Positions 7,993 to 60,347 of a stretch of 64,000 bases of DNA are shown here, piece after piece; positions within the stretch are counted from its first letter, which is position 1, and every line of letters begins with the position of its first letter. The DNA lies in contig NW_003314297.1 in assembly GCF_000143415.4 (NCBI RefSeq), positions 248,001 through 312,000 on the forward strand, given 5' to 3'. The notes under the pieces are model-generated. The model was not told where the DNA came from, did no database searches, and saw nothing but the letters and a program-made list of their open reading frames with translations. Position numbers and translations under genes: made by a program. The stretch is from Selaginella moellendorffii. Taxonomy: Eukaryota > Plantae > Lycopodiophyta.

Positions 7993-8505
7993 ATATGAAA
8001 GAAGAAAAATAAAGTGATTGAATTTTTCTTCCAATTTTCTAAAAATATTTATATGAGATTTAATAATATATAGAATTAGCAAGAAACATAAATTTTACTT
8101 TTCCGACCTAAAACCTATAGATAAAAAATCTATTTCAGCTAATAATACTTATAAATGATATTATCTTAATTAATTAGGACTAACCTCTCTATGCTGTGAA
8201 TATTTAATATGATTAAAATTTAAAATATTTAATTTTTTCAAAAATATTATACATTAACACAAATTGTTTTGTACAACTTACTATAAAAAATTTAAAATTA
8301 ATTGATATGTTGATAGTTTTTGCGCATGACTAAAGGTCACCCTTCATGACATGCCAAAAATTTGGACAAATAAATAAATAAAATTTTAAATTATAATTTA
8401 AAAGAATACTTGGAGTATAGTTACAATAAAATAGTTAAAAATTCTACACCTAAATACTCAAATAGCTTACAAATAATCTTTTGGGTTTTTGACTTTTCAC
8501 CAAGG

Positions 8506-9310
8506 ATGCTTTCACGAGTTTTAGGAAGCAAGCGCTTGACAAGCAACGGTTTACGGTCCTTTCAAGTGTACAGATACAATCCCTAAGATGGCAAATCACC
8601 CTGCCTCCAAGAGTACAAGGTTGACACCAGCAACTGCGTTATGATGCTTGATGTTTTGTTTGAGATCAAGAACAAGCATGATTCGAGTATCACGTTTAGG
8701 CGTTCTTGTCGCAAAGGTGTATGTGGCTCTTGCGCCATGAACATCAATGGTAAGAACTGCCTGGCATGCTTAACAAAAGTTGACAGGGATGAGGATGGTA
8801 TTGCTTCTACTGTGGTGTTGCCTCTGCCACATATGTTTGTGATTAAGGACCTGGTGGTGGACATGAGTTATTTTTATCAGCAATACAAGAGCATTGAGCC
8901 ATGGTTGAAGACCAAAAAACAAAAGGAAGATGGGCAAAAAGAGTTCTTGCAAACCAAAGAAGAGAGAGCAAAACTGGATGGGATGTGGGAGTGTATCCTA
9001 TGTGCTTGTTGTAATACTTCTTGCCCTAGCTACTGGTGGAACACACCTACATTCCCTGGTCCAGCAATTCTGCTCCAAGCATATAAGTAAGTACCATTCC
9101 ATTTTTTTCCTAGTAAAATTTTCCAAATGTTTACTGTTTATTAGAATGATTGCTGATAGCCGCGATGACTTTACCAAAGAGCGTGTGGAGGCCCTCCGTG
9201 GAGAGATGAAGATTGGAAGATGCCACACTATTCGCAATTGCTCTAATGCTTGTCCAAAGGGACTGAATCCCGCTGAAAAGATCCTACAGATCAAAGGGAT
9301 GCTTGGGTAA
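8506..9310 (+). pseudogene. SDH2: Succinate dehydrogenase iron-sulfur subunit copy with premature stop
   Basis: Near-identical to 19866-20670, but codon 27 is TAA (8584-8586) instead of CAA, and CREG reads CRKG. Same single intron (~9088-9145). Confidence 0.9.
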
Positions 9311-12300
9311 AGAGTTCATAAATTTAAATAAACATCACAAGCTCATGTCAATACAAAAGTTTTTAAATGCTCTTGACAAAACAAAAGTACACAAATGTCA
9401 TTTGCACTCCCACCAGTAGATTAGAATAAAGAGCAAATGGACGGCTTGGATGGAAACTCGCTCCTTCACTCTAGGGCATGTCTGACGGGAGTGCCATGGA
9501 TTCAAGAAAGTGAGGCCGGTGAGCTCTTCGGATGGCCGCAAGCATTCCATGTCTTGGATGCAGAGAAGGAAAACTTCTTTTTTCTTTTGCACAGATTTAA
9601 ATGGTAAGATCGATCTTGAAATATTTGTCAGAGAACATTATATGTGACAGTGGATCAAGGACGATGGTGTTTGGAAGCCAGCTTGTTTAGAAGATCTCAA
9701 TGTCAAAGAGTCAAGGTTTGGCTATTAACCATCTCAAGCCTGTATTCTCACAAGCTTTCATGGTTGACGCGACTGACGAGAACTCACAGCTTGAGGAGGA
9801 GCTCCAATCTAGTAAGGAGTTACTTCAAAAGCCAGTGTGAAGAACCCTCATGATATTGAGCTTAGTCCCTTAATCTTGCTAGATGATAGTTTACCGTATT
9901 TTTCAAAACACTCTCACTATCATTCCTTTATGTGTTGATTTTATTCGGTCCTATTGGTTATTTATGGAAAGTGTTTAAATTTACTAACTTAGCATATCTA
10001 TGGAATGTAGTGATTGTCCTAAACACAACGGTGTTGTTTTTGTTAAAAGTTCTAAGAATACTCCAATGTCATTCTATGCTCTTTGAGAGTGTTCTTTTGC
10101 TCATAAGCTATATGCTCGGAAGTCATTCCATGCTTTTGTTCTTTTGCTTCTTGGGTTATATGCTTAGGAGTTATTTTGTGCTTTGATTTCCTACACTCCT
10201 TAGCTATATGCTTAAAAGTTTGACTTCATACCTTCATTTAGTGGCCTAGATTCCACTCCACTACTCTTAGTTCACATGTCCAAAGGTTAAGGTTCAGCTC
10301 TATGGTTATTTTATAGTAAACCACTATAAGGTAAAAGGTGAAAACCACATGTTATAGGGAGTTTAGCTCCATCCTTTTGTGTAGTGTAAACCCTTAATTG
10401 AGGTCTACTCTTAACTCATGTATCCAAGGGTTTAGGTTTTGTTATCCTATGGTGAATCACTATAGGGTAAAGGGTGAAAACTACAATTATTGACTAAAGT
10501 TTATTCAAATTAACTGCTATAATAGTTAGTATGAACAAGTATTTATTAGCTCTTTTGATATTTATTTAGATGTATTAAATTTTGATAAGGTTAGTTCTAA
10601 TGGGTTGGGATGTTACTTTTTCAGGTGATATATTTGTGATCATTTTGCTTATATGTCTGTAATACTTTATGTTCTGTGAGCTATCTTTTATAAATTGTTT
10701 AGTATACTCTCTACATATATTTAGTAGTTAAGCTTTATCATTGAGTTTTCTTGATGATACATCTATTATTAAATTTTATTAGATACTTAATCTTATGTCT
10801 CTTCATCCTATCCTATATCGGTTTAGGGTTATATTGTATAATAAGTAAGTTGAGTATGTCCGACCAAGTTAAGACGTTATCTGGCTATTGTAAACTCCTA
10901 AATTTGAACTTCTTAATAGAGCGAAATTTACCAAATGTAGGTGCTTGAGCGATACCACTGCTGCTACTGTCAACATTGGCGAAAGAACCAATATAGATAA
11001 AGTCACCCAACATTTCAAACCCATATAAATTTAAACTTCCCAAAAAATCACCCAACTCAATATTATTCAAACCCAAGAATATTTAACCCCAAGTATCCCA
11101 ATACCCTTAACCAATTAAAAAAAGGGGTTTATGGGCCCTTTCTTTTTTTATTTGAATCTCTATAAGTTATCTTTTAAATCATTTTCTTTGGCTGCTTATA
11201 GTTACTTATTAGGCATGCCTATCCTTGTTTTATGTTTGATTTGAGTTTAACTCCATACCATGCTGGTGGAGTATTCATATCCTCACATTAGGCCACTAGT
11301 CTGCTGAAATAACACAAAATTCTATTTGACTCCATTTTACATATTAATCTTGGTAGTAGGATGCTAAACTATTTTACTATTGCTCCATATTATTATTCTT
11401 TTGCTCCTTAATTGTATAGTTGAAGTTGTTTCATGCTTTTATTTCTTCACTCCTTAGTGTATGCTTAAGATTTGTTCCATACTCCTGTTCATTTGCTCCT
11501 AGGGTACAACCTCACAAGTCAACTCTATCCCTTTGTTCAATGGCCCAAGGCTTTGGAACTTTAGTTTTGTTCCATGCCCTTTACATATGTGTTTAAGGGT
11601 TAGGATTCACTCTATAGTCATCTTATAGTAAATCACCATAGGATATAGATTGAAAACCATATGTGCTATAGTTTTGGAGTCGAAACAAACCCATTTTCCA
11701 CAAACATAATTGACAATATTATAATTAAAGTAACTTTAATTTTTAACTACCTTGCTCTTTAGATCTTTATTTGCTAAACAAGAAACTATAAAGTGGTCCG
11801 AATCTCTAATAATATCTAGAATGGATAATTAAGCTATGGAGGAGGCAGATCTTCCTACACCATTGCCAAAGTCTCAACCACTAAAACAAAAGTAGCTAAG
11901 AGGAAAACCTTAAGGGAGGCCAGAAAGATCTATAAAACCTGTGAAGGTAAATATATCAAATTAGTTAATTAGTCACTTTTTTTATTGCTTACATGAATTT
12001 GATCCTATGAACTCAAAAGAGAAAAGATAAGTAAAGAGAACAAAAGTCACTTAGAATAGGTAGGAATTCAAACTCCTGCAGCAAGTTAGTAATGGCTCCT
12101 TTTGTTATTTTAGAACCTAAGTTGATGAGTTTATCTAGCTATTGTAAATTATAATTTGAATCTTATCAGTGCTATATATTTTATGAACATAGTTTTTTTC
12201 AAACACAAGCTATATATTGAAAATATAGTTTAGAATTATAGTTCTAAGTTAGAAAATGGGATAGAAAATGAATAAGTAGCTCTTGATGCATTAGCTCATA

Positions 12301-17934: not shown

Positions 17935-18035
17935 ANNNNNNNNNNNNNNNNNNNNNNNNNNNNNNNNNNNNNNNNNNNNNNNNNNNNNNNNNNNNNNNNN
18001 NNNNNNNNNNNNNNNNNNNNNNNNNNNNNNNNNNN
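17935..18035. other. Assembly gap (N run)
   Basis: About 100 consecutive N. Confidence 0.99.
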
Positions 18036-18377
18036 AAAAAGAACCCGACCCGGCAGACGGCAGGCAGCTGCTGCTGCAGTCGACTCTAGAGGACCCAGCT
18101 TGCTTGATTTGAACTTCTTGGACTTTTGGCTTTGAATCTTCTCCCTCACCATATAGTCTTCGTGATTCCCTTTCGTTCCGTCATGTGGTATACATACGTA
18201 TAGTAGAAATACTACAAACCGCCACCGTATCACTTCTCTGCGTATCTGACATAATCTGATGATGATCAACCTGCACTGATCGTGAAATGTATCGTGATGC
18301 CTATGGTAGAAGGCAGGGGAAAAGGGATCTTGGTATAGCGTTCTCGTTTTTTATTTCTACTTCTTTCTTCTTCTTGG

Positions 18378-19264: not shown

Positions 19265-19865
19265 TTCACGATCGCTCGATGTAATTCGCTCGTCGCTGGA
19301 AAGAAAGAAACCATAAGAGTAAAAGTAAAGCAGCAGGCCTGGCTTTTGAAGTAACTCCTCACTGGATTGGAGCTCCTCCTCGAGCTGCGAGTTCTCGTCG
19401 GTCGCGTCAACCATGAAAGCTTGTGAGAATACAGGCTTGAGCTAAAAATTTACTAAAGATGGTTAATAGCTAAACCTTGACTTGCACTGATCTCTTCGAC
19501 ATCGATATCTTCTAAACGAGCTTCCTCGATCCACTGTCACATATAATGTTACCATTTAAATCCGTCCTTGAGACCTTGATCCAGCGGGCAGTCGAGCCTG
19601 TGCAAAAGAAAAAAGAAGCTGCCCTTCCCATATCTGCATCCAGGACATGGAATGCTTGCGGCCATCCTCAGTCGGAGTTGCGGCGATCGATCGAAGAGCT
19701 CGCCGGCCTCGCTTTCTTGAATCCATGGCGCTCCCGCTCCTTCACTCTAGGGCATCTGTCTGACGAGTTTCCATCTGCTCTTTATTCTAATCTACCGGTG
19801 TTGTTTTGTCAAGAGTACTTAAAAACGACATGAGCTTGTGATGTTTATTTAAATTTATGAACTCT

Positions 19866-20670
19866 TTACCCAAGCATCCCTTTGATCTGTAGGATCTTTT
19901 CAGCGGGATTCAGTCCCTTTGGACAAGCATTAGAGCAATTACGAATAGTGTGGCATCTTCCAATCTTCATCTCTCCACGGAGGGCCTCCACACGCTCTTT
20001 GGTAAAGTCATCGCGGCTATCAGCAATCATTCTAATAAACAGTAAACATTTGGAAAATTTTACTAGGAAAAAAATGGAATGGTACTTACTTATATGCTTG
20101 GAGCAGAATTGCTGGACCAGGGAATGTAGGTGTGTTCCACCAGTAGCTAGGGCAAGAAGTATTACAACAAGCACATAGGATACACTCCCACATCCCATCC
20201 AGTTTTGCTCTCTCTTCTTTGGTTTGCAAGAACTCTTTTTGCCCATCTTCCTTTTGTTTTTTGGTCTTCAACCATGGCTCAATGCTCTTGTATTGCTGAT
20301 AAAAATAAGTCATGTCCACCACCAGGTCCTTAATCACAAACATATGTGGCAGAGGCAACACCACAGTAGAAGCAATACCATCCTCATCCCTGTCAACTTT
20401 TGTTAAGCATGCCAGGCAGTTCTTACCATTGATGTTCATGGCGCAAGAGCCACATACACCTTCGCGACAAGAACGCCTAAACGTGATACTCGAATCATGC
20501 TTGTTCTTGATCTCAAACAAAACATCAAGCATCATAACGCAGTTGCTGGTGTCAACCTTGTACTCTTGGAGGTGGGGTGATTTGCCATCTTGGGGATTGT
20601 ATCTGTACACTTGAAAGGACCGTAAACCATTGCTGGTCAAGCGCTTGCTTCCTAAAACTCGTGAAAGCAT
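19866..20670 (-). CDS. SDH2: Succinate dehydrogenase iron-sulfur subunit, two exons, intact
   Basis: Basic N-terminal targeting peptide. All three Cys clusters present: [35 protein letters not shown]. One GT-AG intron at ~20031-20088. Confidence 0.93.
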
Positions 20671-20848
20671 CCTTGGTGAAAAGTCATAACCTAAAAGATG
20701 GCCTTATTTTTATTGAGTTTAAGCTAAATTTAGGTCGCAACGAAAGAATGTAATTTGCACTATTTTATCGTAACTAAGCTCCAACATAATTTAAACATTT
20801 TATTTTGTGATTTACAAAATAATATTTTGAAAACCACCTTTTTTTCAA

Positions 20849-27884: not shown

Positions 27885-28536
27885 AATGTAGAAAGTAATT
27901 ACAGAGTAGGGTGGTTACAAATACCATATTTAGGACATGTTACAAACGAAAGTTGTATGTCCTTTCAGTTGCAACAAGAAAAGTTTTAAAACCAATGCAT
28001 CCATTTATTTTGTCCAAATAAAAGTAACATATATAAGACACTAAAAATAATATGTGACAAGATTTTCTATTATATCTGGAGTAAAATCTTGACAAAATAA
28101 CTGACATCATTTTTGAGGTGCATGAGTCAATCCAACTCTAATAGCAATATCTAAAACATTATCTAGAAAAGGGATTTTATATTCAGTCACACTTAAGATC
28201 ATAAAAGAAAAAACCTTACAACCATTATTGTGTGGAGGGAATAAAAATTGGAAATGGAGGTGGAGACTCATATGAAATGCATGGGACCAAGTTCGAGTAA
28301 TAATAACATTTTAAGCAAATTGAATTTTGAATGGTATTTATTGGTATGTATATTAAGTTAAACTCTAGTTTTTAATATGACATTGACAATATACAGATTC
28401 TTGATAGTTTAGATTGTTAATCTTGGAAATTTAGGACTTTAGAATCATAATAATGTTAGAACCACTTATATTACAATTATATATAATAATGTTCTTACAC
28501 ATGGTGAAGAACAATATTTCATTGGTAAACACTATA

Positions 28537-28560
28537 AAGCTCTATTTCGTTAAAGTGGGA
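28537..28560 (+). repeat. Left terminal inverted repeat
   Basis: Reverse complement of 42270-42293 with 2 mismatches. Confidence 0.88.
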
Positions 28561-28978
28561 ATTGTCATTATCCCACTTGTAAAATAAGGTTTCCAAACCT
28601 TTATATAGTATATAAATATAACAAAATTCAACTGCATTGAGGCACATGTCATTTTATTTTAAACAAGGAAATGTCTACTCAATCATTTCTCCTCCCCCTG
28701 CCACTGCTTCACCTCTCTCTTCTCCTTGTCATCGTCATCCAATTTCTTTCCATCCTTTTAATATTGGCTTAGTTGCTCTGAGTCTAGGTGGAGCCCAAGT
28801 CCCCATTCAATCTTTACTTTCCCCTTATTAATAAAACAACTTCGTAGACTTCCAATAACATGCTGTAACACTTCTAGTATAATGCAAATCCTCTCAAAGA
28901 ATTGTCTTTTAATATTAATACAATGGCATGGAACCCCATGCCATAATAAGTTACATTTTTAAATAAATACATGCCATC

Positions 28979-31900
28979 TCAGACTGTTATTTTTTGCCTC
29001 CAACGCCTATATAATAATCTTGGAATTTCATCACTCTCCACACTATCAGGATTTAAACCCAATAGTAATGCCATCTCTTCTCTAATACGTCCACGCTCAT
29101 GTTCAGTGGTCGAAGAACCCATCCGGTTGAGCAGATTATGGAGATGCGGATAGTGCTTGGCTAAACAATATACATGCCATAAATGATGACTGGTGTCTGT
29201 CCGATCAAATGGCTTCTGATATACCGTTCTATCTGCCATTTGGTTGATTTCTGCAGCCACCTCCTGGACTGGCCGGTTCTCTATCACCATCGCTCCAAGC
29301 CGTTTTGCAAGGTCCCCCAGAACATATGGTTTCTTCTCCCTAGTTTCCATACTGCAAGAGATGGGGTGCACTGCATATGTGTGCATGTTCGCTGCAGTTT
29401 TAATCGGCGAGTCATCGATGATAAGGATTTCACTTGACCTAGCAGTCCGGTTCATCACTACAGCCTCTGGCTTGATGAAGATGGGCTTGCTACCCCTCAC
29501 ATGGACTATAGTCAAGCAATCCTCCTGCGTTAGGAGAAAGTCAAATGGTAATATTACTCGTGTCTGATCGTGCATCATCTGTAGCAATGTTAATGCATTG
29601 TGGCGCATCATGGATGTCCAAACTCCCAATTGCAAATTGAACCCGGCCCTTTGTTTTAAGTGTTGCATGGTCATTATTAGATTTTGCAGTTTCTCCCGTG
29701 TGATTAATGTGAATCTGTCTCTTTTGACCAACTTGCGACTGCAGGCTTTGGAGGGTGTAGTGACATTCGAGGATGAGCCACACTCATGGGAGAAAAGGAC
29801 ACCGTTCAGATAAAAAACGATACAGTACCTTCGCCGTGACTCTGAAATGAAATGCGTCAGCATAAAAAATGGTACAAATCAATTTTACCATCTACAATAT
29901 TAGCGAATGGTGCTCCTGATGGTCGTTGAGAGGGTTTTGGTCGAGGAAACGTGAAGGGCAGAAATACTCTCCTCTGCAATGTGGGGTCAATCGCATCCGA
30001 TGGCGTGTGGGCACATGCCATTTCAGCTGTAGACTCTGGTACAATTGGCTCAACAGTGGCATGGGGTGGTTCCGATGGCGTGTGATCACACGCCATTTCA
30101 GCTAGTGCCTCCGTTGGCAAAGTGGACATGACCGAACAGGCAGCAGGGGCGGTGTAGGGAGGTTCCAACGGCGCATAGTCAGACGATTGGGCACACGTTG
30201 AGTCCGTTGGAAATGAGGATACGACCGGCTCGGCGGCTGGGGCGGCCTCATGCAGGTCCAATGGCGCCTGGTCACCGTCAGTTGGATACGTGGACAAGAT
30301 TGACTCAGTGGTATGGGCAGCATCAAGTGGAGCGTGGTCAGCTTGCTTGGCGTTGATATGGATAGTAGCCTCCACCAGCTCTGATGACTCTTGCAGGCAA
30401 GTAGAGTCCACTGGCGGATCCATATGCATGTCCAAATATCTCCCTTCGATTGAGATGGTATCCTCCCTACTGGCTACTAAAAACAAACTCATTAGCACAT
30501 TGAATCGACTATACTGTATTTACCATCAACTGCTATTGAGGAACTAGGACCGATATCACTTGGGTGCACTGCTGATTCTGAAGGATTGGACATACGTTTC
30601 GACCCTTGCTTGGCACTATCCTTCCTCGACACTAAAGGCTAGAGTTTGTATCTTAATTCAACTGAATAATCTCTACTTACCATTTGCTTTGCAACCTACA
30701 TGGACAATGTTAGAAATGGTAAAAGGTTAGGAATGGATGTACTATTATTTACCTGATGGTTTGTCTTGTATGACCTTCCTCCGCTGCTCTTTGGCCACCT
30801 CAGGCTGGCCATCGTCATCATCATCGTCGTCGTCGTTATTGTGATCGTCACCATTGTGAGGACCATCCAAGTCCTCTTTGTCCTCCTCTTCTTCGTCCTC
30901 CTCTTCTTTGTCCTCCTCTTCGTCCTTCTGCTCTTCCTGCTCATTATCTTTCTCTGGCCCCTCATCCCCCTCCTGCATTTCTTCCATAGGCTGCTCAGGC
31001 TGGATGGCTTGTTCTTCCAAGACCATCTTGGGAAAATCATCTGGCCGAGTCTCCATCTCAAAATACAAGACATCCATAGCCTGTTTTAGTGTGTGACCTA
31101 GGACCATATCCTCACCCGACTGTCTTAACATGGTTTCTGCACCCCCTAGCCAACCAACAGAGTCGGACCCGAGACTCCCCTGATACCAAATGTAGGCTCC
31201 TGAGTTTGGACTTCCCGAGAGGTCACCCAGCCCAGTACTATTCAAACCCAAGGACGTGTAACTCCAACTATACCAAGACCCTTAACCGATGGGAAAAGGG
31301 GGTGCACTCTTATTCATGGGCCCTTTCCCTCTATATTTGAACCCCTATGGATCGTCTCTCGAGTCGTTCCCTTTTGCTGCTTCCACCGACGACTGTCCAA
31401 CGTGCTTTTGCTTTTTATGACCACTGTCAGTTTGAGCTTGGCTGGTGCTTGCCTGTTTTGCCTTTGAAGAAGTGTCTCCTGCAAGGAATGGCATGAGACC
31501 ACACGCCATTGCAAATATAATTTGTACCTCCTTTTTTCCTATTGCTTGTCTGTTTGTCCTTCTTCGATGCGCCACCAGTGCGCTTTTCAGTCCTCGTGTC
31601 TGAATATTCACAAAGATCTATAATCAAAATGGCGTGAGGCCTCACGTGACCTTACCTTGTGCAGGTTGTGAGCTCGGCCCAACATGGGTATCTTCAACAG
31701 TAGCTGTTAACGCCGTTTCAGCATCTGGGGGTGGCCACGCTCCTGCATACAGAGCTTGTGAGATAACATTTAAACTTAAAGTGCGTACTCACCAGGTTCG
31801 TAGAGAAGATACTGTTTTTCTTTGGCAACTGTAATTATATGCTCCATTGAAGTCACCTCTTCAATGGAGTTTGTCACCGCAACACACGGGACACCCTTGA

Positions 31901-34350
31901 GTAGTGCGGCTCGAAAGAATAGTCCGCCGCAGTTGTACTCGACAACGCATTTGCCCTTGGAGTCGGAAGCAGGTGACCCACCCGCTATTGCGTTGAAGAC
32001 CCAACTGAGCATTTCCCATGCTGCACCTGGAGCTTTCTCTGGATTCGAAAGCTCCATAGCCGTCTTCAGTTCCTTAGGCACGGGTAAATTGACCTCCCTC
32101 AGATCAATTCGATCGGCCTTGTCGAATGAAGCTGGGAAGTCACTCCAGTCCCACTCTGCTGCAGGACTAATAACAAGGGCGAGTGTGAAGATGCGGACAT
32201 TCGTCGGTATCTTCTTCTTAGCCATTATCCCATGGATCTCCTGCATCTCCTTGCCTTTCAACTGAGCCTTCACCTCGTTCAAGGCCTTCTAGAACTTGTG
32301 ATAGGATTCGGAGTCGTAGATCATATAGTGGACTGAAGATTCCACCTCCGCAAGTCCCACCATTAAGTCAATGATGGAGCTGACTTCGTCTGCATGAGTG
32401 ATCTCCTCGTTTGTGAAGTCCATCACACAAAAGATGTTCTTGACCTGCTCATCTCCGCAGGAAACGATGCTCCTCCACCTTTGATCCTCATCCGAATTCA
32501 CGTATACCCGGTAAGGTTCTCGATAGGCCTCTACTGCGGGGTCGAGCTGTTTCTGAAGCCAGCAGTCGACATCCCTCTTAATGAAATTTGGATACTGATC
32601 CAACTTCTCAGCTTTACTTTTCGTGGCATCCCGTAGCAGATCGATGAACTTGGGGGCCCCTTTCACGTACTCGTCGATGTCTTCATTTGACAACTCCAGC
32701 TCTTCCATCATCTCTTGCGTGGTGTCGATGCTCACCCTCTCCACGGCCACTTGCTCGAAGATCCAATCCTTCAATAGTGCACGAGCTCTCAGAGTCGTGC
32801 ACAAGTCCTCGTATGTCACAATATGGCCGGGAGTCATTTTGGTCTTGTTGAAGACTACCTCACCACGTAGAAGAGCATTAGCCACTGTTAGAAGGTCGTC
32901 GTCGTCTAGAGACCGCGAGAAACGCAAGGCGTTGAGCTTCAAATCATTGGGCTTCCGGCCGTCCTCCACACCCATTGAGTTTAGCAACTCCCCGTCATGG
33001 TACCTCCTCAGCACATCTACCCATTTGTCAAAAACAACTTTTGTCGCGAGTAGAATGTTATGGATGCTAAGTGTGTCATTGACCCCCAGTGTTTTCGAGA
33101 GAAGACTCGAGAATTCCTGCAATGGAAATGGCGTGAGGTCACATGCTATGCCACATGCAACGAGGCTTACCTGCTAGGCGCTAGTTGCTAGTGCACGTCC
33201 TTGTCCTGGTTTTTGTGGCTTCTTCAGTTGAACCCAGAGCTTCCGTGTTCGTGCCAATGTCTCGTGCAGACCCGATTTGTAGCACGTTTCTTGCTTGACA
33301 TTCTGCGCGTAGGAGATGTATATGATAGATCGGAGGGGCGAGTTGCCTTTTATCAGGCAGACAACTCTTGTCTTGAAGACTTTCTTCACCTCCTCGCCCA
33401 CCATAATATCCACAACTATCTCTTGCATTGCCAAGCTAGAATGCTGCCCGGAGACAGCATAGAACCGGATGTTCTGATCGTCCAACACCTTCCTATTGAT
33501 CAAGTCTGGAAACCTCGTCTCGCCCTTCATTGTTCGGTAGTAGGGGATCACGTCTGTGATGTCGGGTGTTACTAGACTTGCCAGCATCTTCTGCTTCAGT
33601 TTCTCCACCCACTCATCAGATACTAGCCTGTGGTTGTATTTGCTTTGGATGTCGATACGGCTCATGTCGATTGTATATACTTTGTTGGAATAGTAACAAG
33701 TACTATTATCTGCGACAATTTTTGCTGCCTCTTCTTGCTCTTTCTGCTTTTTGCGGCTCTTCTTTTTGGTGGGTGTAGTGTTCGAACCCGAGGCAATGGC
33801 ATCACCGAGTAGCTTCTTTTTTGGAGCAGGAGAGTCGGACGTCGGCTTGAGCTTGACCACCCTTTTTTGCTTCGGGGTAGTTTCCAGATCGACCCCCTTC
33901 CCCTTCGCTTCGCAAACTGGAGGCACTCTCAACGGCTCAATGTTGGAATATAGTTTTTGAACATCGCCGTAGGTGAGGTCCGTGGATTCCATGTGATCTT
34001 CATAGACCTGCAACGTCTTTGAAATTGTGGGCCTCCTGGACAACCTCTCCCTAGCTCCCTCTAGGAATTCCTCATAGCTGCTGCCCCCCTCCGGGAAGCC
34101 GCTAGGATGTGCAAGGTGGATCTTGAAGGCGGATGCTGTCTCTACCACAAGTGCCAGTCCATATTCTTGCATGGAACTGCATGGAGTGTCTGTCACTTGG
34201 ATGAGGATCCCCATGCATTATTTTCTCCCACCATCTGTGTTGTACAGCCTCAGATCCTCGCCTTCCATCCCGAAAGTCCAACTGGTGAGCTCCTCCCCCT
34301 TCTCTACATCCACATTGACAGTGGCTGGAAGAAGAATGCAATTCCTTGCC
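28979..34350 (-). pseudogene. Large multi-exon cargo gene (~1,600+ codons): ParB/Srx-like domain, degenerate DNA-MTase-like domain, acidic region, FCP1/NIF HAD-phosphatase-like domain; five in-frame stops
   Basis: Eight ~50-nt GT-AG introns join ORFs 33174-34214, 32289-33122, 31776-32282, 30745-31251, 29857-30498 and 28979-29863 in frame. Motifs FYAVSGQHSSLA; VVEYNCGGLFFRAALLKG; IVFYLNGVL..VWTS..TQEDC..IIDDSP.K. True start not resolved. Confidence 0.72.
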
Positions 34351-35236
34351 TGTTCAGAAATGCACAACAATTAGAGCTGACAGATGAAAAGCTAGCAACT
34401 GGAAATAACGTGAGGCCACACGCCATTCACCACTACATCAGATGTCTTGAGGCTGCATCCTAAGATGGCGTGAGGCTACATGCCATCTGTAACCGGACTG
34501 CCATCGAGAGCCCAATCGGTGCATGCCAATGTTGCTACTGAATGGCATGTGGCCTTATGCCATTTTCTACTTGGCCTAAAAGACTTACCATTTGAAGCCG
34601 AATGGAGGCATGACAATCGAGGCCGGACTCGCTGGCGAATGTGCACTGTGTGTGCAGCGGATCGTAGCAGCAAGGCTACTCTGCCACTTACAGTTGGAGA
34701 GTGGCGTTGAAATCTCCCGGGACGCCAAGTGGGCTGCGTGTGGGTGGCGGAGTGGGCGGCGGAGTTGGCGGCGAAGTTACAAACTGGGTGTGTTTTGAAG
34801 TGGACGCCGATGCACACGAGCGCAATGCGAGCGCGAGTGTGATGCAAGCGCGAGTGGACGCCGATGCACACGAGAAACCTGTAGAGAAGGTAGATGAGCG
34901 CGAATGTGAGCATGATCGCGAGTGTGCGAGCGCGAGTACGATGCAAAACCTAACCTCACACGCGCGAAATGTCACGACGGTTGGTAATCCCGCCACGTCA
35001 TCATTCCTCGGACTTGGGCGCCACCATTAATTTCTAGATCGCCGCGCACATGCATGCACGTGAAATCCAAAAGAAATCCGCAACGTCATCATTCCTCGGA
35101 CTGCATGCACGCAAAATCCAAAAGAAAGATCATGATTGGGATATCATTTAATACCCTTGCTATATTTATACCATGCATGATTGGATATTCCAAAGCATCT
35201 TGTATTTCCAAAAATGCCAGATGTTCAGCTAAATAA

Positions 35237-37151
35237 AGAATGGTATACAATGTCCTTCTTAATGACCCTGCAAAGAAGCATCTCGATCGGACACCACATG
35301 AGACCACACGAGCCTTACAATGTTTCAAGGGCATTTGCCATAGATCCGACCGTTATTTTGCTCCAAGATTCTACAGTTTGGTGTGCATTGACCTTTCCAT
35401 CGACACTGCAAAGGGACATCATAATCAGATGCGGGATCACAAGAAACCAACTTCACTAACTCTGGTTTCACCAAGATCTACGTAAAGAGTTATGAAATGA
35501 AAGGACCCTCTCTATTGAAATGTGTTTATGGTCCTGACATATCAAAGGATTTTGCATCAAGTTCTGTATTTGCATGTTTATCAAGCTACTGAATTGCTAA
35601 ACCCTAAACATGTGGCAAATGTTGCGTGAAGAAAGATGCCCTTTCTGGGCAAATGCTGTAAGAGGCAGATGCCGAGCAGTTACACGGTGAATAATCTTGG
35701 CGCGGATCGCTGACATGGCATGGCAAAGTTTGAATCACTGACATGGCACAGCTGGATCGAGGCAAGGACATGATGTAACAAAGTTCAACGTCCGACAGCA
35801 AAGTCTAGAAGCTACTCAGTTTGAAATTTGTCAGAGGAATTATAAGATCTGGTTTGTCAGAGGATTTGATGTGACGTTCAAGCGTGTGGGCTCATGCAAT
35901 TTTGATCCCAAAAAATGCACCAAAAAATGCTCGGCGTCATCTGGCGTTATCTCTTGAATGGCGTGGGGCCGCATGCCATTTTCAGGGGCACATAGGAGTA
36001 TATTCCTAGAATATTCTAACATGCGCGAGATTTTTTTGAGTTTTCTGGAGATCCAACCGTTAGATCGCAACTAGATTTTACAGAATGGTATACAATGTCT
36101 TTCTTGATGACCTTGCAAAGAAGCATCTCGATCGGACACCACATGAGACCACACGAGCCTTACAATGTTTCAGGGGCATTTGCCATAGATCCGACCGTTA
36201 TTTTGCTCCAAGAATTTACAGTTTGGTGTGCATTGACCTTTCCATCGACACTGCAAAAGGACATCACAATCAGATGCGGGATCACAAGAAACTAACTTCA
36301 CTAACTCTGGTTTCACCAAGATCTACGTAAGGAGTTATGAAATGAAAGGACCCTTTCTATTGAAATGTGTTTATGGTCCTAGGGGCATTGTGATATATCA
36401 AAGGATTTTGCATCAAGTTCTGTATTTGCATGTTTATCAAGCTACTGAATTGCTAAACCCTAAACCCTAAACCCTAAACATGTGGCAAATGCTGCGTGAA
36501 GAAAGATGCCCTTTCTGGGCAAATGCTGTAAGAGGCAGATGCCGAGCAGATGTATCTCAAGCTAGCGAAGGGGACAAACGAAAGCTAGCTATAAACATGA
36601 TGGGATGCAAATAGATTACTAGGCTGGTCCTGCGAAAATCAAAAACCATAATTGAAAACATTGAAAATGCAAAAAGAAAGGTTTATAATATTTTTGAATT
36701 TTAAGAAACCAAAGGAATGTAAGTAGGGCATGTGTTTGTAAGTTTAAAAATGCCTCAACCACTTAAATTCCCAAGTAAATAAAGCTGTTTCTATTTTTGG
36801 TACAGGTAAACTTTATAGTGTGTGGGCTCATGTAATTTTGAACCCAAAAATGCACCAAAAAATGCTCGACTAGCATTATTCTTTGAATGGCGTGTGGCCT
36901 TATATTGCCATAAATGGACATACACACACAGCATAATTATTCCTTTATACGGCGAATAATCTTGGCGCGGATCGCTAACATGGCATGGCAAAGTTCGAAT
37001 CACTGACATGGCACAGCTGGATCGAGGCAAGGACATGATGTGACAAAGTTCAACCTCCGACAGCAAAGTCTAGAAGCTACTCAGTTTGAAATTTGTCAGA
37101 GGAATCATAAGATCTGGTTTGTCAGAGGATTTGATGTGACGTTCAAGCGTG
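35237..37151 (+). repeat. Internal permuted direct duplication between the two divergent genes
   Basis: 35237-35680 matches 36082-36548; 35684-35887 matches 36949-37151; 35885-35970 matches 36820-36900. Confidence 0.9.
36453..36479 (+). repeat. Interstitial plant telomere-type repeats (CCCTAAA)n
   Basis: CTAAACCCTAAACCCTAAACCCTAAAC; the paralogous site at ~35596 has one unit. Confidence 0.85.
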
Positions 37152-37837
37152 TGTTATTTTTGAATTCTCGAACTCATTCCTAGGTCTATCATTTTTGTGC
37201 GCCGTGTTCTTGGTTCCGCTGAGCGCAGTGAGCGCTGCTTGTGTAAGCGGCGTTGTGAGCTGTGGTTTATGCGTCTACGAGCGGTTGCGGCATTGCGAGC
37301 GCCATTGCGAGCGGCAGTTTATGCGAGTGGCAGTTTGTACGAGTGGCGCTACGAGCAGTTGCGGTGTTGCGAGCGGCGCTACGAGTAGTTGCGGTGTTGC
37401 GAGCGGCACTGTCTTTGGTGTGGCTACCGCTTCCTCTTGATATTCGGCACTTGTGCTTCCTGGTATGTTCACCATGGAATGGCTTAGGACCACATTTAGA
37501 AATGGCATGAGGCCACATGCCATCTTGGGCCCTTGCAATTTCAATGAGTGACTAGTCACGCACACAAAAATATATATAGTTGCAGCAAGGCAAAAGGAAT
37601 ATAGCAACAGGCTAGCAGGGGCCAAAGATAGCGTGAGGCCTCATGCCATTAGTAGTACCACTAATGGCATGAGGGCTCATGCCAATTTTGTGAATGCAAA
37701 ATTTCACATGGGTGTCAATAGCATGTTTGAATAATGGCATATGGCCTCATGCTATTGAGGTTGTTTGGTATATTATGATTTATGCCATTCTCCAATCATT
37801 TTTTGTATGGTCTTAACTTCTTTTTTGCACTTTCAAA

Positions 37838-40662
37838 ATGGCCTCCGCAAGTGCGACGCATGTTCCCTCTGTGGATCTTAAGAACCGTGCTATATGGATT
37901 CAGGCAAAGGTGTTTTTAAACAACCCCGAGGGGGAGGTGGTAGCTGAGGGCTTAGCCACAGTTGTCGATCCAAGAGATGCGGTTGCTAATCAAGAATTGG
38001 GCTGGGATGATATTGGAGTTGTGATTTTAGAGGTTGTTGACACAGAAGAAAACAGTCTGACTATTGGAAGCATTGTGCGGTGGAAATTGAGGCACTTAGT
38101 GTTTGAGAATGTGAAGGATTCACAATCAAACACCACTACAATTGATGACAGAACATCTCTTCATGGGAAAAGAAAGTACACCTTCCTAAAGCGCAGCCAA
38201 AGGGATCTGAGCAACGAACCGAAAAGGCAGAAAATGGCGATGGAGGTTCGAATGGTCTCGACAGTTGCTTGTTGCAAGAGGAGGTGCTGTCAACATGCTG
38301 ATTAGGATACTATTGAAGAGGAGAGAGCAAGATACAAGACATTGTCCTGGAAGGCAGCTCGCAATTTTGTGTATGAGGCATTACGGTCATCTGTTGATGC
38401 TTCAGAACATCAGGTGGGGGGCATGGTCTTCTAGAAGGGTTTGGTTTGCATGAAGGCATGGAGAATCATTTATGGAGTCCCTCGAACCACATTCTACAGA
38501 ATCAAAACTGAGTTCGAGGAACAAAGGGTTCAACAGGCAGTCCATAGGAACGATGGTACTCACAAAACCAGGGGTCATGTTGTATATGGAGAGGCAATCT
38601 TCAAGATGTTTGTCAAGACATGTAGTGAGCAGCAACCACATAAAACCCGCCTCTTGGAAGATGGAACTCGAGACACCCAACGAGTTCTCCCTTCCATGTA
38701 TACCAAGGGGGCCATATTGGAAGATGTGAATCGGGAACTCCAGAGTAATGGCTACAAGAAGCTGAGCCAATCTAGATTTAGTAGATTGTGGAGCAACAGG
38801 TTCAGGGATGTGAGTATAGGAAAGTACTCCAGCTTTTCAAAGTGTGACGAGTGCACTGCTATCAAAATGGCTTTGTCGAAGAATTCTTGCATCGCTCAAG
38901 AGCGAGAGACGTTGGTTAGAAGGCGGCTCGACCACAACATCGAGCAGAGAAGCTGCAGGACTGCATATTATCATAACAGGATTCTCTCCATGGAGAGACC
39001 TGACTCTTACCTCTGCATCATCCATGACAAAATGGACCAGAAAAAGATGTGCTTACCTCGACTCAATCCTGCCCCCAAGGCAATCTCTTCATCCATGCAG
39101 CTGCCTGTGTCTCTGTTTGGCATAATCGCTCATGGGCATGGTGCCTAGAACTATGGAACTTCTTTGTACCTCTATGGGGTGGCGGGGGTGCAAACATGAT
39201 GATTGCGTCCCTAGCAAAACACTTAAGGTCTCTGCAAAGTGCGCAGAATGAGCTGAACGGCCAACCCTTGCATAAGGCCCTTGTCGATCGAACCCCATAC
39301 AGGGTTCAGCTGGAGGAGGAGCAAAGGCTTGCAGTATCGCGTGGGGCCCCATGCCATCCCAGTGAATATGTTGGCCGTCAGATTGTAGGGTTATCACGTG
39401 AGGCCTCATGCCATTCCGACGAGGCTGGTCGCCCGGTGAATGCACAGCCTCATCCAAACGAAGCAGAATCTCAAGGAAGTTCTTGCGGCTGATGTGGCCT
39501 TCCACCCCATCTTCTGCTCCAAACAGACAATGCTGGCAGTGAGAACAAAAACATGTACGTCTTCGCGTACTTGGCGATGCTTGTTGCCAAAGGCATATTT
39601 GAAACGGTTACACTTGGCTTTCTCATAGTTGGGCACACTCATGAAGACGTCGATGCCATGTTTAGTCACCTGGCAGAGTCCCTCCGGCGATCCAATGTCC
39701 TCACCCTCCCACAACTCTACGATGAATTCCAAAATTGCATCAAAGGCACTGTTGGAGCTGCACTTGTGACAGAGGTTCCAGACTTTAAGGGGTTTGTAAG
39801 AGGCTACATCAGGGACGGATCCGAAACGCTGATTGGCCACTCCAAGCCTCTTCAATTTCATTTCAGCATGTGTGACGGTGCTCCAGTGATGAGGTACAAG
39901 ATGAGAGAATGGGACACAGTGTGGCTGCCAGTGGACGGCATTGAACTCTTCAAGAGAGATCCTATAACTGGGGAACCTATGATTCCTCAGGGTTCCCCAC
40001 GGCCGATGCACCCGGATGGACTCAAAGACCAGGAAAGTATAGTGGCCGGGATTAGACAGCATATTGCCTTCTGGAAGAGGGGGTTGGTGTTTGGTGGAGA
40101 ATCCTATTTTCAGAGGTGCAAGCCTTTGATCGAATATTGGGAGAAGATTATATCTGCTATCCAAAATGGGCCGGTTGTATATGAAGAATTGGAAGAGTCC
40201 TTTTGGCCAGAACCCAGAGCACCAGATAGTAGCGGAACAATGTCCTCTGGAAATGCAGTGACAGATAACGATGTTGAGGATCACTATTGTGGGCCGAGGA
40301 ACAAGAAGCCGGATTCAGCATTCAATCCAGTACAGGTCTGCAAAGGAATGGTTGTGCTTGTCAGACCCAGTAATAAAAAACAAATGATATGGGTGGGGCG
40401 CTGCATCACTGATGCAGAGGAGGACGCGGAAACTAACTCCTTCAATGTAACTGTGGAGTGGTTCAAGCCAAGTTCCGGATATACGAAGGATTGCCTAGAA
40501 AAGAGATGGGTGCTGAATCCAAGGGATCCCAGCATGAGCATATCGGTGGATAATGTTGTGCATGGTTGGATGCGGAAGCAAAGTGCCACCATCACCTTGC
40601 CAGACCATGCAAGAGATGCAGCAAGAGCATTCATAACCCGGGTTCAAGGTGAGATTCATTAA
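37838..40662 (+). pseudogene. Sola1-like DDD transposase, disrupted by four stops and one frameshift
   Basis: FSRLWS..F...FSKCDEC, LCIIHDKMDQ, LQTDNAGSENKN, FLIVGHTHEDVDAMFS. Stops at 38303, 38432, 39146 and 39490; frameshift at ~39160. Possible additional small 3' exons. Confidence 0.8.
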
Positions 40663-42269
40663 TATTCCTTTACTAAGTTTCTAATGTATTTTATTTCAAG
40701 GTGAACAATCCAAATCTGAATCAGAGGAGGCGTGATGGCATGTGGCTTTACGCCATTCCTAGGTGAGATGATACAAATAACAAGTATAAATTCTTAGTTG
40801 TTTTAGCAAATCTTACTTAAAGTTCAAGGTGAACAAGCCGAATATGAATTCATCGGATTGTTATAACAAATTGCGAGGTGATGGCATGAGGCGATACGCC
40901 ATTTGAGAGTGGTAGCCATTCCTATATGAGGTGAGTGAAATATTTATTAGAAATACCTCATTCAATTGTGCACTTCTAAGTCTTGGTCCACTCAGTACTG
41001 TTTGCATGTTTTTATTTTAATTCTTTCTCTAAAATGTTATTTAGCATGTAGCTTCATGCCATTGCTCTCCACAATCATGTATTGAATTTTTCTATCCTTG
41101 CATAATACTTCTCCATATATATAGCATGTGCGCACATGTGATATGGTTCATTAGGCCTGATATAGTGTGTGAGGTAAAACAAAGATGATGTGACATATGC
41201 ATTTACCAATTACATGTGCATAAATCTAATAATATGGCGTGTGGCCCATATTAATGGCACATAAACCCATATTGTGGGCTTACGTGCTTTATGTACCATC
41301 ATTCCCTTGCAGCGTGTGTGTTGGTTTCCTTTTATAACACAACGAACTCCATATTTTAGGGTGAAGAGCGTTCTCATGGCAAGCACAAAATCTGTAAGTG
41401 AGGCAGAAAAGGAGACAGAGAAAGAGATAGGTGAAGATGTAGAATATATAAGTCTTCCAAACTCCCCGTACTATACTCCAGGTGATCATTTTTCTGAACA
41501 AACGACAACATTAACAACTATTGAGAACGCCCCAATAACATCAAAGACAACAATCCAAAGCAAAACAACTGACCCGGAGAAGGATGATAGTACTGCTGAG
41601 AGTACCAAAAAGGAGGTGTCCACTAGCGCTTAGGCTTATAATGGCGTGTGCCCTCATGCCATTTATTTGATCACCAAATACTTTTTTCCCTTTGCACTAG
41701 TATATCTTAATACCGGTCTGAGAAATAGAATGGCATGTGCCCTCAGGCCTTTTACTAAATCACCTTTGAAAGAAATGCAAGCCTCTATGTCGTAAAAAAA
41801 AGGTACTAGAGAAATTCCTTAATAATATGAATGTTATTTAGTTTCATGAAAATACACTAAGGGTCAAATGAGTTAAATGACTTCTCCAGACTAGCAATGC
41901 CTCTTGCTACACCTTCACAATTAGATTCGTTAGAAAAAGATAACATTGAATAATATCTAAATGTTCTCACCATTAAGTTATATGTCTGGCTAATAGGAAT
42001 GACGTTCATCTTAGAAAGCTCACCACACGCTCAATGAACAAACAAATAGTGTGTGTGCGCATGCCATCGCTTTTCTTTAGCTTCAGATTCGGCTTGTTCA
42101 CCTTGACAATGAGATTTATTATACAACCAGATGGACTCAGTCTGAACACAAAGTCACCGCGCTAGTCACCATGCCCTAGATATGTCTAGCCCCTGGACAA
42201 AAAACATATAATTTCACGTCATTTTCAAATACTTGAAAATTTGTACCTAGTCCCATTTTACTGAATAAA

Positions 42270-42293
42270 TCCTACTTTAACGAAATAGAGCAT
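42270..42293 (-). repeat. Right terminal inverted repeat
   Basis: Pairs with 28537-28560. Confidence 0.88.
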
Positions 42294-43624
42294 TATATCA
42301 GTGAATGCTAAATATAGGATTTAGGCCACCCTATAATGTGATGTGAGAGTCATAGTTTCTTTTTTATACTTTCATGGCTCTAGAACAAGGTATGCTACCT
42401 ACAATCAATACCATATTCTTCTTCTTCTTTTTTTTTCCTTTTTAGGAATAAGTAATACCATTAAAGCTATTGTGCATATAATGTCTTAGTTTCCTTTAAA
42501 GTTTATTTCATTATGAGTAAAGTGTAGAGTTATATTTTTAAGAATGATAGCATTCTAGCATGAAAATATAATAATTTGTGTCTTTAAATCTTTCTTAATT
42601 TTCTTGTACATCCATGTATATACACCTTCTAAAGGTGTGATGAGATTAATGATAATTTAGTGGTGATAGGTTTAATTACTAGATCAAACTACACAAATAG
42701 TATTATTTGATTGTGGTGGTTTGCTTTTGCTTTTTTTTTAACTTTACTTTAATGTTTGATAGTATTTAGGTGATGTTTTGACATTGACATTGTTAATGTC
42801 AATGTTAGAATGAGATGAGATGTTTCTTTATGGGTTTACAAAGGAAATTGGATTTTCTATCTACAATGATTTAAATGGTTAGTTATTAATTAAAAATTAA
42901 CATTTAATTTTACTAGTTTTGATGATGATGATGTTGATGATCTAGCTATACATTTATTTTATTAGATTCATGCATTTACTAATTGGTAACTATATTCACA
43001 TACAAACAAAATAAATGACAAGTTGAGTAAGTTTTATTTTAAACAAGATTACTTGGTAGTTTTTCCTTGGAAAGTGGTTTAATCATGGTTTATGCTGTTG
43101 GATTTAAGTTTAAAATTATCAATCATTGATGATTTTTATTATGCTTGTTTTGAAATGAGATGCTTTTGGTGTGGAAATGAATTCATAGAAGAGTGGTTTA
43201 GTGATCAATTTTTAAACATAGCTTTGTTGTGTTTAAATTTTTGATTAATGCATATATGATTTTCATTAAAGTTTCAGTTTATAAATATGTTTATAAAAAC
43301 ATTATAGATTATACTTTAGATTGTTTTTGAGCATTGTAAATAGTCGATGTGAGATTAGTGATCTTATTATATAGAACTTAATTATAAATTTCTTCATCTT
43401 TTAATTCTTATATTTATTATTCTATTTGTTAAAAGTTATTGAAAAAAACATTTTACCTCATTAACTTTGATGTTCAAGTTAGTTTGCATATCTTGCATAC
43501 ATTTATGATAATTAATTAACATCAACGATAATTAATTATCTTTGTTCTATTTGATTGATAAGCTTCAAATTTTAAGTTTTTTTCAGCATTATTTGTAATT
43601 TTAATGGAGGTTTAGGGCTTTTCG

Positions 43625-57536: not shown

Positions 57537-60347
<2,811 letters not shown>

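Follow-up and report, generated by a model that had tools for sequence, protein, structure and literature searches.

A 64,000-nucleotide stretch of the Selaginella moellendorffii genome (contig NW_003314297.1, positions 248,001 to 312,000; "the window" below means this whole stretch of analysed DNA) contains a series of minus-strand open reading frames (ORFs) in which ParB-like, methylase-like and NIF phosphatase-like parts follow one another. The question raised by this locus is whether these ORFs are spliced into one protein, and what such a protein could do for the DNA that carries it. The ORFs lie within a DNA transposon, opposite its transposase gene. We give about an even chance to the reading that this is a decayed Sola1-like element whose cargo gene is spliced into one palindrome-binding, non-catalytic scaffold that protects the element from silencing. 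The features that delimit the element are as follows.

28537..42293: whole DNA transposon, Sola1-like, decayed copy, 13,757 bp, with inverted ends, TATA flanks and a contig junction at 28537
28533..28536: left 4-bp target-site duplication, TATA
42294..42297: right 4-bp target-site duplication, TATA
28537..28563, plus strand: left terminal inverted repeat (TIR)
42267..42293, minus strand: right TIR
37838..40662, plus strand: DUF7869 transposase gene, divergent from the cargo gene, disrupted by stops and by a frameshift near 39154

The TIR pair is identical at 24 of 27 nt between the two element ends. A contig of run X2, derived from another copy, tracks the window from 28537 on and has an unlike flank beyond that point, marking a second insertion site. 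In addition, a depth-2 contig links 28531 to 42319 in a register matching that of a related site lacking the element (18 of 24 letters agree by eye). The inverted ends, the TATA duplication and the X2 junction indicate a cut-and-paste element with at least one further insertion. A virus or prophage origin was rejected on the basis of the spliceosomal introns, the TIRs and the plant neighbours, and a host gene reading of the cargo was rejected because the gene is inside the TIRs and another insertion site exists.

The transposase region matches Pfam PF25273 (DUF7869) with an E value of 1.2e-38, and its D..D..GHTHEDxD motifs are, we presume, of the Sola1 type; a paper search did not find the term DUF7869. 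Both TIRs and a 4-bp target-site duplication were found, as in Sola1 DNA transposons. The target site of the window copy, TATA, is unlike the AWWT preference named as a Sola1 hallmark (PMC3845634), and ATCT ends the left flank of one other copy; the target sites of Sola1-1_Ec32 are biased to end in A (PMC12477816). Two sites are too few to define a preference, and the element is assigned as Sola1-like only. As side observations on this half of the element, run X2 carries 244 additional letters at 37844-37846, directly after the transposase start codon, and the intergenic spacer (35234-37153) contains internal duplications of 96-99% and a telomere-like CTAAACC run, parts of which are skipped by X2 contigs. 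No Pfam match was found in the transposase C-terminus (40330-40659), which we take to resemble a BAH/Tudor-type beta domain.

The cargo gene was modelled on the opposite strand.

28979..34591, minus strand: cargo gene, 10 exons, 1,653 codons plus stop with five premature stops; splicing predicted
34591-34589, 34349-33171, 33116-31793, 31742-31656, 31599-31528, minus strand: exons 1-5
31478-30753, 30695-30681, 30631-30524, 30473-29889, 29841-28979, minus strand: exons 6-10
31143..31385: high-copy repeat patch inside exon 6, 243 nt, containing the stops at 31347 and 31284

The nine introns, 239, 54, 50, 56, 49, 57, 49, 50 and 47 nt long from 5' to 3', are all of the GT-AG type; seven are in phase 1 and two in phase 0. 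The first (34588-34350) likely sets off an exon consisting of the ATG only. The position of intron 2 coincides with a gap of matching size in two relatives, P0001 and P0017, and the other introns were placed from splice signals and frame alone. The two alternative frames of the joined exons contain 81 and 96 stops. An earlier note on this DNA had connected the ORFs through eight GT-AG introns, seven of them in phase 1; these introns were reproduced from 34349 down, with lengths of 47-57 nt and the remaining one in phase 0. The single frame of about 1,600 or more codons that it described also stands, at 1,653 codons over ten exons, except that it is interrupted by five premature stops (34220, 33176, 32291, 31347 and 31284). 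The KKKSRKK stretch, the acidic tract, the Pro/Ala linker and the NIF-like last exon were all found where that note had placed them. Owing to the five stops, the window copy is a pseudogene unable to make the protein.

Comparison with other copies shows how the window copy was damaged. Of 194 places that differ between run X2 and the window, 159 have A or T in the window and G or C in X2, and the same direction was seen at all 24 places that differ from run X3. Forty-seven places were classified, comprising 24 of the 25 rows of one comparison and 23 of the 40 rows listed in another (191 rows not listed), after leaving out three X1-only rows, one other-repeat row, twelve exon-6-patch rows, one duplicate and one intron-1 transversion (34503). 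C-to-T changes account for 46 of the 47, and 39 of these 46 fall in CG or CHG, compared to 33% of all C. Such an excess is the mark of methylated DNA, and judging from this pattern the window copy is one that decayed through methylation-type C-to-T change. Where the window has its stop at 33176, X1 and X3 have a Trp codon; NIF motif I begins with Asp in other copies and with Tyr in the window (place 29812); and neither X1 nor X2 shows the transposase frameshift near 39154. The stops at 34220 and 32291 lie close to the limits of the compared regions, where difference counts leave room for a single further change by each stop, a hint at most. At the exon-6 patch, the X2 copy has 260 different, unread letters in place of the 243 nt, so exon 6 as modelled in the window does not hold for the family; a segment at 11030-11128 of the window is 77% like this patch. 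Contig depths of the runs give no copy number.

Support for one fused protein that is independent of the window comes from a fern. A full HMMER search with a 643-residue query returned seven proteins, of which five are real and bring in more members through their clusters; the other two, P0002 (a repeat) and P0003 (an RTX-repeat protein), were dropped as chance matches. P0017, a predicted protein of Adiantum nelumboides (1,125 aa), matches exons 2-3 (BLAST E 6e-14) and then exon 10 (BLAST E 1e-5) in the same order. At successive positions along its length, P0017 aligns to the window's ParB-like part (z 3.4), then to its helical part (z 15.6) and finally to exon 10 (z 8.0); the methylase-like part gives no pairwise match (z -1.0). 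The order ParB-like, helical and NIF in a single chain independently supports one fused protein. Exon 10 of the window has no Met ahead of NIF motif I, which also speaks for one protein. A further fern protein, P0006, joins the upstream region and the NIF domain in one predicted chain; an Atlas search with P0006 found nothing. The uncharacterised A. nelumboides homologues MCO5596946.1 and MCO5603593.1 include the NIF domain and lack the acidic tract and the linker, and the LOC9650508-type proteins of S. moellendorffii, likewise uncharacterised, lack the ParB-like and NIF parts; identities to both groups are in the range of 21-27%. In P0008 of S. moellendorffii and in P0011, the helical and methylase-like parts are matched and there is no NIF domain. 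A metagenome locus found with P0011 was rejected as a bacterial glycosyltransferase. Four annotated S. moellendorffii proteins, P0001 and P0008-P0010, have the helical and methylase-like parts only and are either truncated models or a domesticated copy.

What each part of the predicted protein may do was examined domain by domain, beginning with the C-terminal end.

28979..29841, minus strand: NIF (HAD-fold) domain of the DxN type, exon 10

The window domain matches Pfam PF03031 with an E value of 5e-4 and 20.2 bits, under the cut-off of 21.8, and the homologous domain of P0017 is above the Pfam cut-off (E 7e-17). As motif I, the window has YLNGV, other copies DLNGV and the fern DLNGL, and IDDSPxK is also present; the DxDx(T/V) catalytic motif of FCP1/SCP phosphatases of the C-terminal domain (CTD) of RNA polymerase II (Pol II) is absent. 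By its motifs, this is a real NIF domain of the DLNG/DxN type and not an FCP1-type CTD phosphatase. DXNXT-type NIF proteins of fission yeast and filamentous fungi have been described as candidate pseudophosphatases (PMC13216928), and the DxN motif I shared with them suggests that the phosphatase fold is likely inactive here. Compared by description only, they have Asn for the second Asp, as here; they are host genes, whereas the present domain is fused into transposon cargo and its motif Thr is replaced too. A metagenome scan with exon 10 gave no match.

33177..33722, minus strand: ParB-like domain, motif-level call
32520..33116, minus strand: conserved helical region, the best-conserved part of the family

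The CTP-binding motif of ParB proteins is G-x-x-R. The window has SGQHS and P0017 has SGLHS, with Ser at the position of the Arg, and thus the motif itself is not present. The ParB-like part, known here from two distinct family sequences only, aligns to residues 274-421 of P0017 with z 3.4, a value reached by two of 200 shuffles. The ParB identity is a motif-level call (SGxHS) that leans on precedent. The helical region aligns with four relatives at z 15.6-23.9, and its predicted structure has a pLDDT (predicted local distance difference test) mostly of 60-90; structure searches with it gave no clear fold match. The ParB-like part, exons 2-3 and exon 10 each found no match in word-index protein searches.

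31794..32519, minus strand: methylase-like domain in permuted order; catalytic motif missing, SAM-loop-like EYNCGG retained
30790..31000, minus strand: acidic tract, missing in the fern protein
29889..30473, minus strand: Pro/Ala-rich linker exon (exon 9), with two palindromes in coding sequence

The methylase-like part matches P0008 (z 7.7) and P0011 (z 7.2). Its end motif, which resembles the loop binding S-adenosylmethionine (SAM), varies as EYNCGG, EYGCGG or DINTGG and is retained in the window, P0008 and P0011. The catalytic motif (D/N/S)PP(Y/F) was found in none of the 18 proteins compared and not in the window's methylase-like region, and all that is left is a single conserved Asp (alignment A4, column D233). 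In the structure comparison, a SAM-methylase (Z 5.1, root mean square deviation 3.1, 69 aligned), the N4C methylase 8s9n (Z 3.9, 4.9, 109 aligned) and M1.HpyAVI (Z 3.9, 4.3, 101 aligned) were tied with unrelated folds. An Atlas lead (0.84) pointed to an N6_N4_Mtase cluster that includes P0008 and in which 39% of the members are PF01555. A permuted amino-methylase class has been defined (PMC4738411), and the domain order together with the end motif appears compatible with a permuted (beta-class) N6A/N4C amino-methylase of the PF01555 type. Searches of the window protein against Pfam, PHROGs and PDB sequences did not match a methylase, and PDB sequence searches with the cargo protein and its relatives had no matches other than designed proteins and unrelated ones. 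Reference ParB and methylase profiles seeded from phage P1 yielded only near-identical sequences. Both the methylase fold and the ParB call thus rest on motifs and weak matches.

A possible binding site for such a protein is present throughout the element.

28923..42067: 22-bp palindrome, consensus ATGGCRTGNGGCCNCAYGCCAT, 22 dispersed copies

With up to four mismatches allowed, all 22 copies in the 64-kb window, within which specificity was assessed, fall between 28301 and 42200; the remaining ~50 kb contains none, and the mean in 30 resamplings was 0.0. Of these, six fall in cargo introns (1, 2, 4 and 5), exon 9 and the transposase region contain two each, and the other twelve are located outside the two genes or between them. 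The palindrome does not resemble the TIR; most copies are well inside the element, and they cluster near both gene starts and toward the right end. Within the window it is therefore an element-specific motif of mainly non-coding parts, as VANC binding motifs are.

These features suggest a scaffold that would act at the element's own DNA. The cargo protein would bind the palindromes through its ParB-like and helical regions, dimerise on them as ParB does on parS, and then coat the copies of the family. The methylase fold, lacking its catalytic motif, may serve as a DNA- or SAM-binding module, and the acidic tract may contact histones. The captured DxN NIF domain would bind a phosphorylated partner rather than hydrolyse it, the Pol II CTD being one candidate. 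The net effect would be continued transcription of the family copies, comparable to what VANC proteins achieve for VANDAL elements.

Parts of this design have precedents. Sola1-1_Ec32 of Ectocarpus carries an accessory gene with ParB-like and amino-methylase domains opposite its transposase gene, for which self-binding was proposed (PMC12477816). Like the present element, it is a giant TIR element with a 4-bp duplication. It differs in host (the present element is from a land plant), in size (21.5 kb versus 13.8 kb here) and in TIR length (282 bp versus 27 bp here), and only here is the methylase motif degenerate and are an acidic tract and a NIF domain added, as far as the available text describes; the words 'phosphatase' and 'palindrom' are absent from the main text of that article. 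In Bostrychia, the Plavaka accessory genes PAG2 and PAG3 encode ParB cargo beside inverted-repeat arrays (10.1101/2025.02.11.637652). They likewise join a ParB-like part to a swappable catalytic-fold domain near the element's inverted repeats, and they differ in having an EnSpm-type transposase, 2-oxoglutarate (2OG) oxygenase or SET partners instead of NIF, and tandem arrays instead of sites dispersed in introns. The binding motifs of VANC21 sit in introns and other non-coding regions (PMC5735166); VANDAL elements share with the present one a cargo gene and an element-specific motif in such regions, and no homology is claimed. VANC motifs are 8-9 nt long and tandem, in contrast to a 22-bp palindrome, and VANC activity has been demonstrated, whereas here it is inferred. 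The NIF fusion of ParB-methylase cargo was not found in paper searches, which miss most subscription journals. The core design of ParB plus methylase transposon cargo is already published, and the NIF effector module is new and shared with the fern.

Several observations weigh against the scaffold reading. No spliced read or single mRNA for the cargo gene was found in the runs examined. RNA run X8 (12% read) placed 470 reads, 98% of them continuing into unlike sequence, which leaves only short matches from other transcripts; run X9 has no read on exons 2-3, and contigs of X1 and X12 cross cargo introns unspliced. The absence of transcripts fits a silenced family and is no test of splicing. The family's 260 nt in exon 6 are unread and differ by 17 nt from the window's 243. 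The fern proteins are gene predictions and have neither acidic tract nor linker; the end of the methylase fold (the SAM-loop half) is missing too. ParB was matched in no Pfam, PHROGs, PDB sequence or phage tblastn search, and the single-sequence structure model was unusable (pLDDT 32). The predicted methylase fold is weakly indicated, its best Z of 5.1 falling on a region with pLDDT 30-50; Foldseek on PDB and viral libraries gave no match at E 0.001, and the family profile gives no score on the P1 Mod methylase. Finally, an in-frame ATG lies within intron 9, so that a separate NIF start is formally possible. As a separate observation, about 170 X8 RNA reads with other flanks, all first mates on the plus strand, cover 34655-34694, a 40-bp stretch upstream of the cargo start, and likely stem from an expressed relative, either an element or a gene, that runs in the same sense.

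That ATG, the lack of spliced reads and the absence of the NIF part from P0008 and P0011 are what would be expected if the NIF exon were a piece captured from the host or a small gene of its own, a Pack-type passenger, with the long splice path unused. P0017 and P0006 join the same parts in the fern, the frame is kept over seven consecutive phase-1 introns of 47-57 nt, and the NIF motifs are conserved in other copies; a mere passenger is, in our estimate, improbable. The fused protein proposed in the earlier note is supported by the fern domain order; no single mRNA was seen in the runs examined, and profile searches recovered its NIF fold (below the cut-off in the window, clearly in the fern) and neither ParB nor the methylase. 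A fused protein could instead be an active enzyme whose NIF domain removes phosphate from the Pol II CTD or from some other chromatin protein at the element, or whose methylase fold marks element DNA. The nucleophile Asp and IDDSPxK are retained in family copies and in the fern, the SAM-loop-like motif persists in three proteins as described above, and changes in NIF motifs do not always abolish activity (PMC13216928). Against this, DxN replaces DxDxT, the (D/N/S)PP(Y/F) motif is missing from every protein compared, and the SAM-loop half is lost in the fern protein, making catalysis unlikely in our view. As to the domains named in the earlier note, the NIF domain is not of the FCP1 CTD-phosphatase type, motif I being DLNG in other copies and fern, and the ParB and methylase folds were not recovered at significance. 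The note's suggestion that the protein controls the element fits a cargo gene inside a TIR transposon with an element-specific palindrome.

The palindromes admit another use, as transposase sites or as a partition-like device, in which case the cargo protein would pair the ends or tether the excised element and would have no role in silencing. Their clustering near both gene starts and toward the right end accords with this, as does the binding of ParB to inverted repeats in DNA segregation (10.1101/2025.02.11.637652). Their dissimilarity to the TIR and their position mostly deep inside the element, in introns like VANC motifs (PMC5735166), speak against it, and we hold a role of this kind to be doubtful.

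Outside the transposon, the window contains an assembly gap of 100 N at ~17950-18050, and its ORFs presumably include pentatricopeptide repeat (PPR) genes and a 6-phosphogluconate dehydrogenase-like gene. The segments 8480-9349 and 19827-20696 form a 99% inverted duplication, within larger inverted duplications that contain PPR pseudogenes; we take the duplicated gene to be succinate dehydrogenase iron-sulfur-like. A zf-C17orf113 domain (E 1e-23), which we assume to be a transposase-derived zinc finger type, is encoded at 57716-58219.

Returning to the scaffold, a more specific version of it, which we offer as a rather long shot, is that an old transposon lineage of clubmosses and ferns joined a captured host NIF pseudophosphatase to a bacterial-type ParB/parS protein and thereby tethers phosphorylated Pol II at its own palindromes, or shields it there from host phosphatases. 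That a fern prediction has the same NIF fusion points to a design that is old or has spread horizontally. If the proposal is true, it would represent anti-silencing through gripping the transcription machinery and not through editing DNA marks, at a time when few transposon anti-silencing systems are understood. The long, element-specific 22-bp palindrome makes both the binding of the protein to its site and the effect on methylation or Pol II directly testable. More broadly, ParB-guided cargo with interchangeable effector folds (methylase, 2OG oxygenase and NIF phosphatase fold) looks like a modular family.

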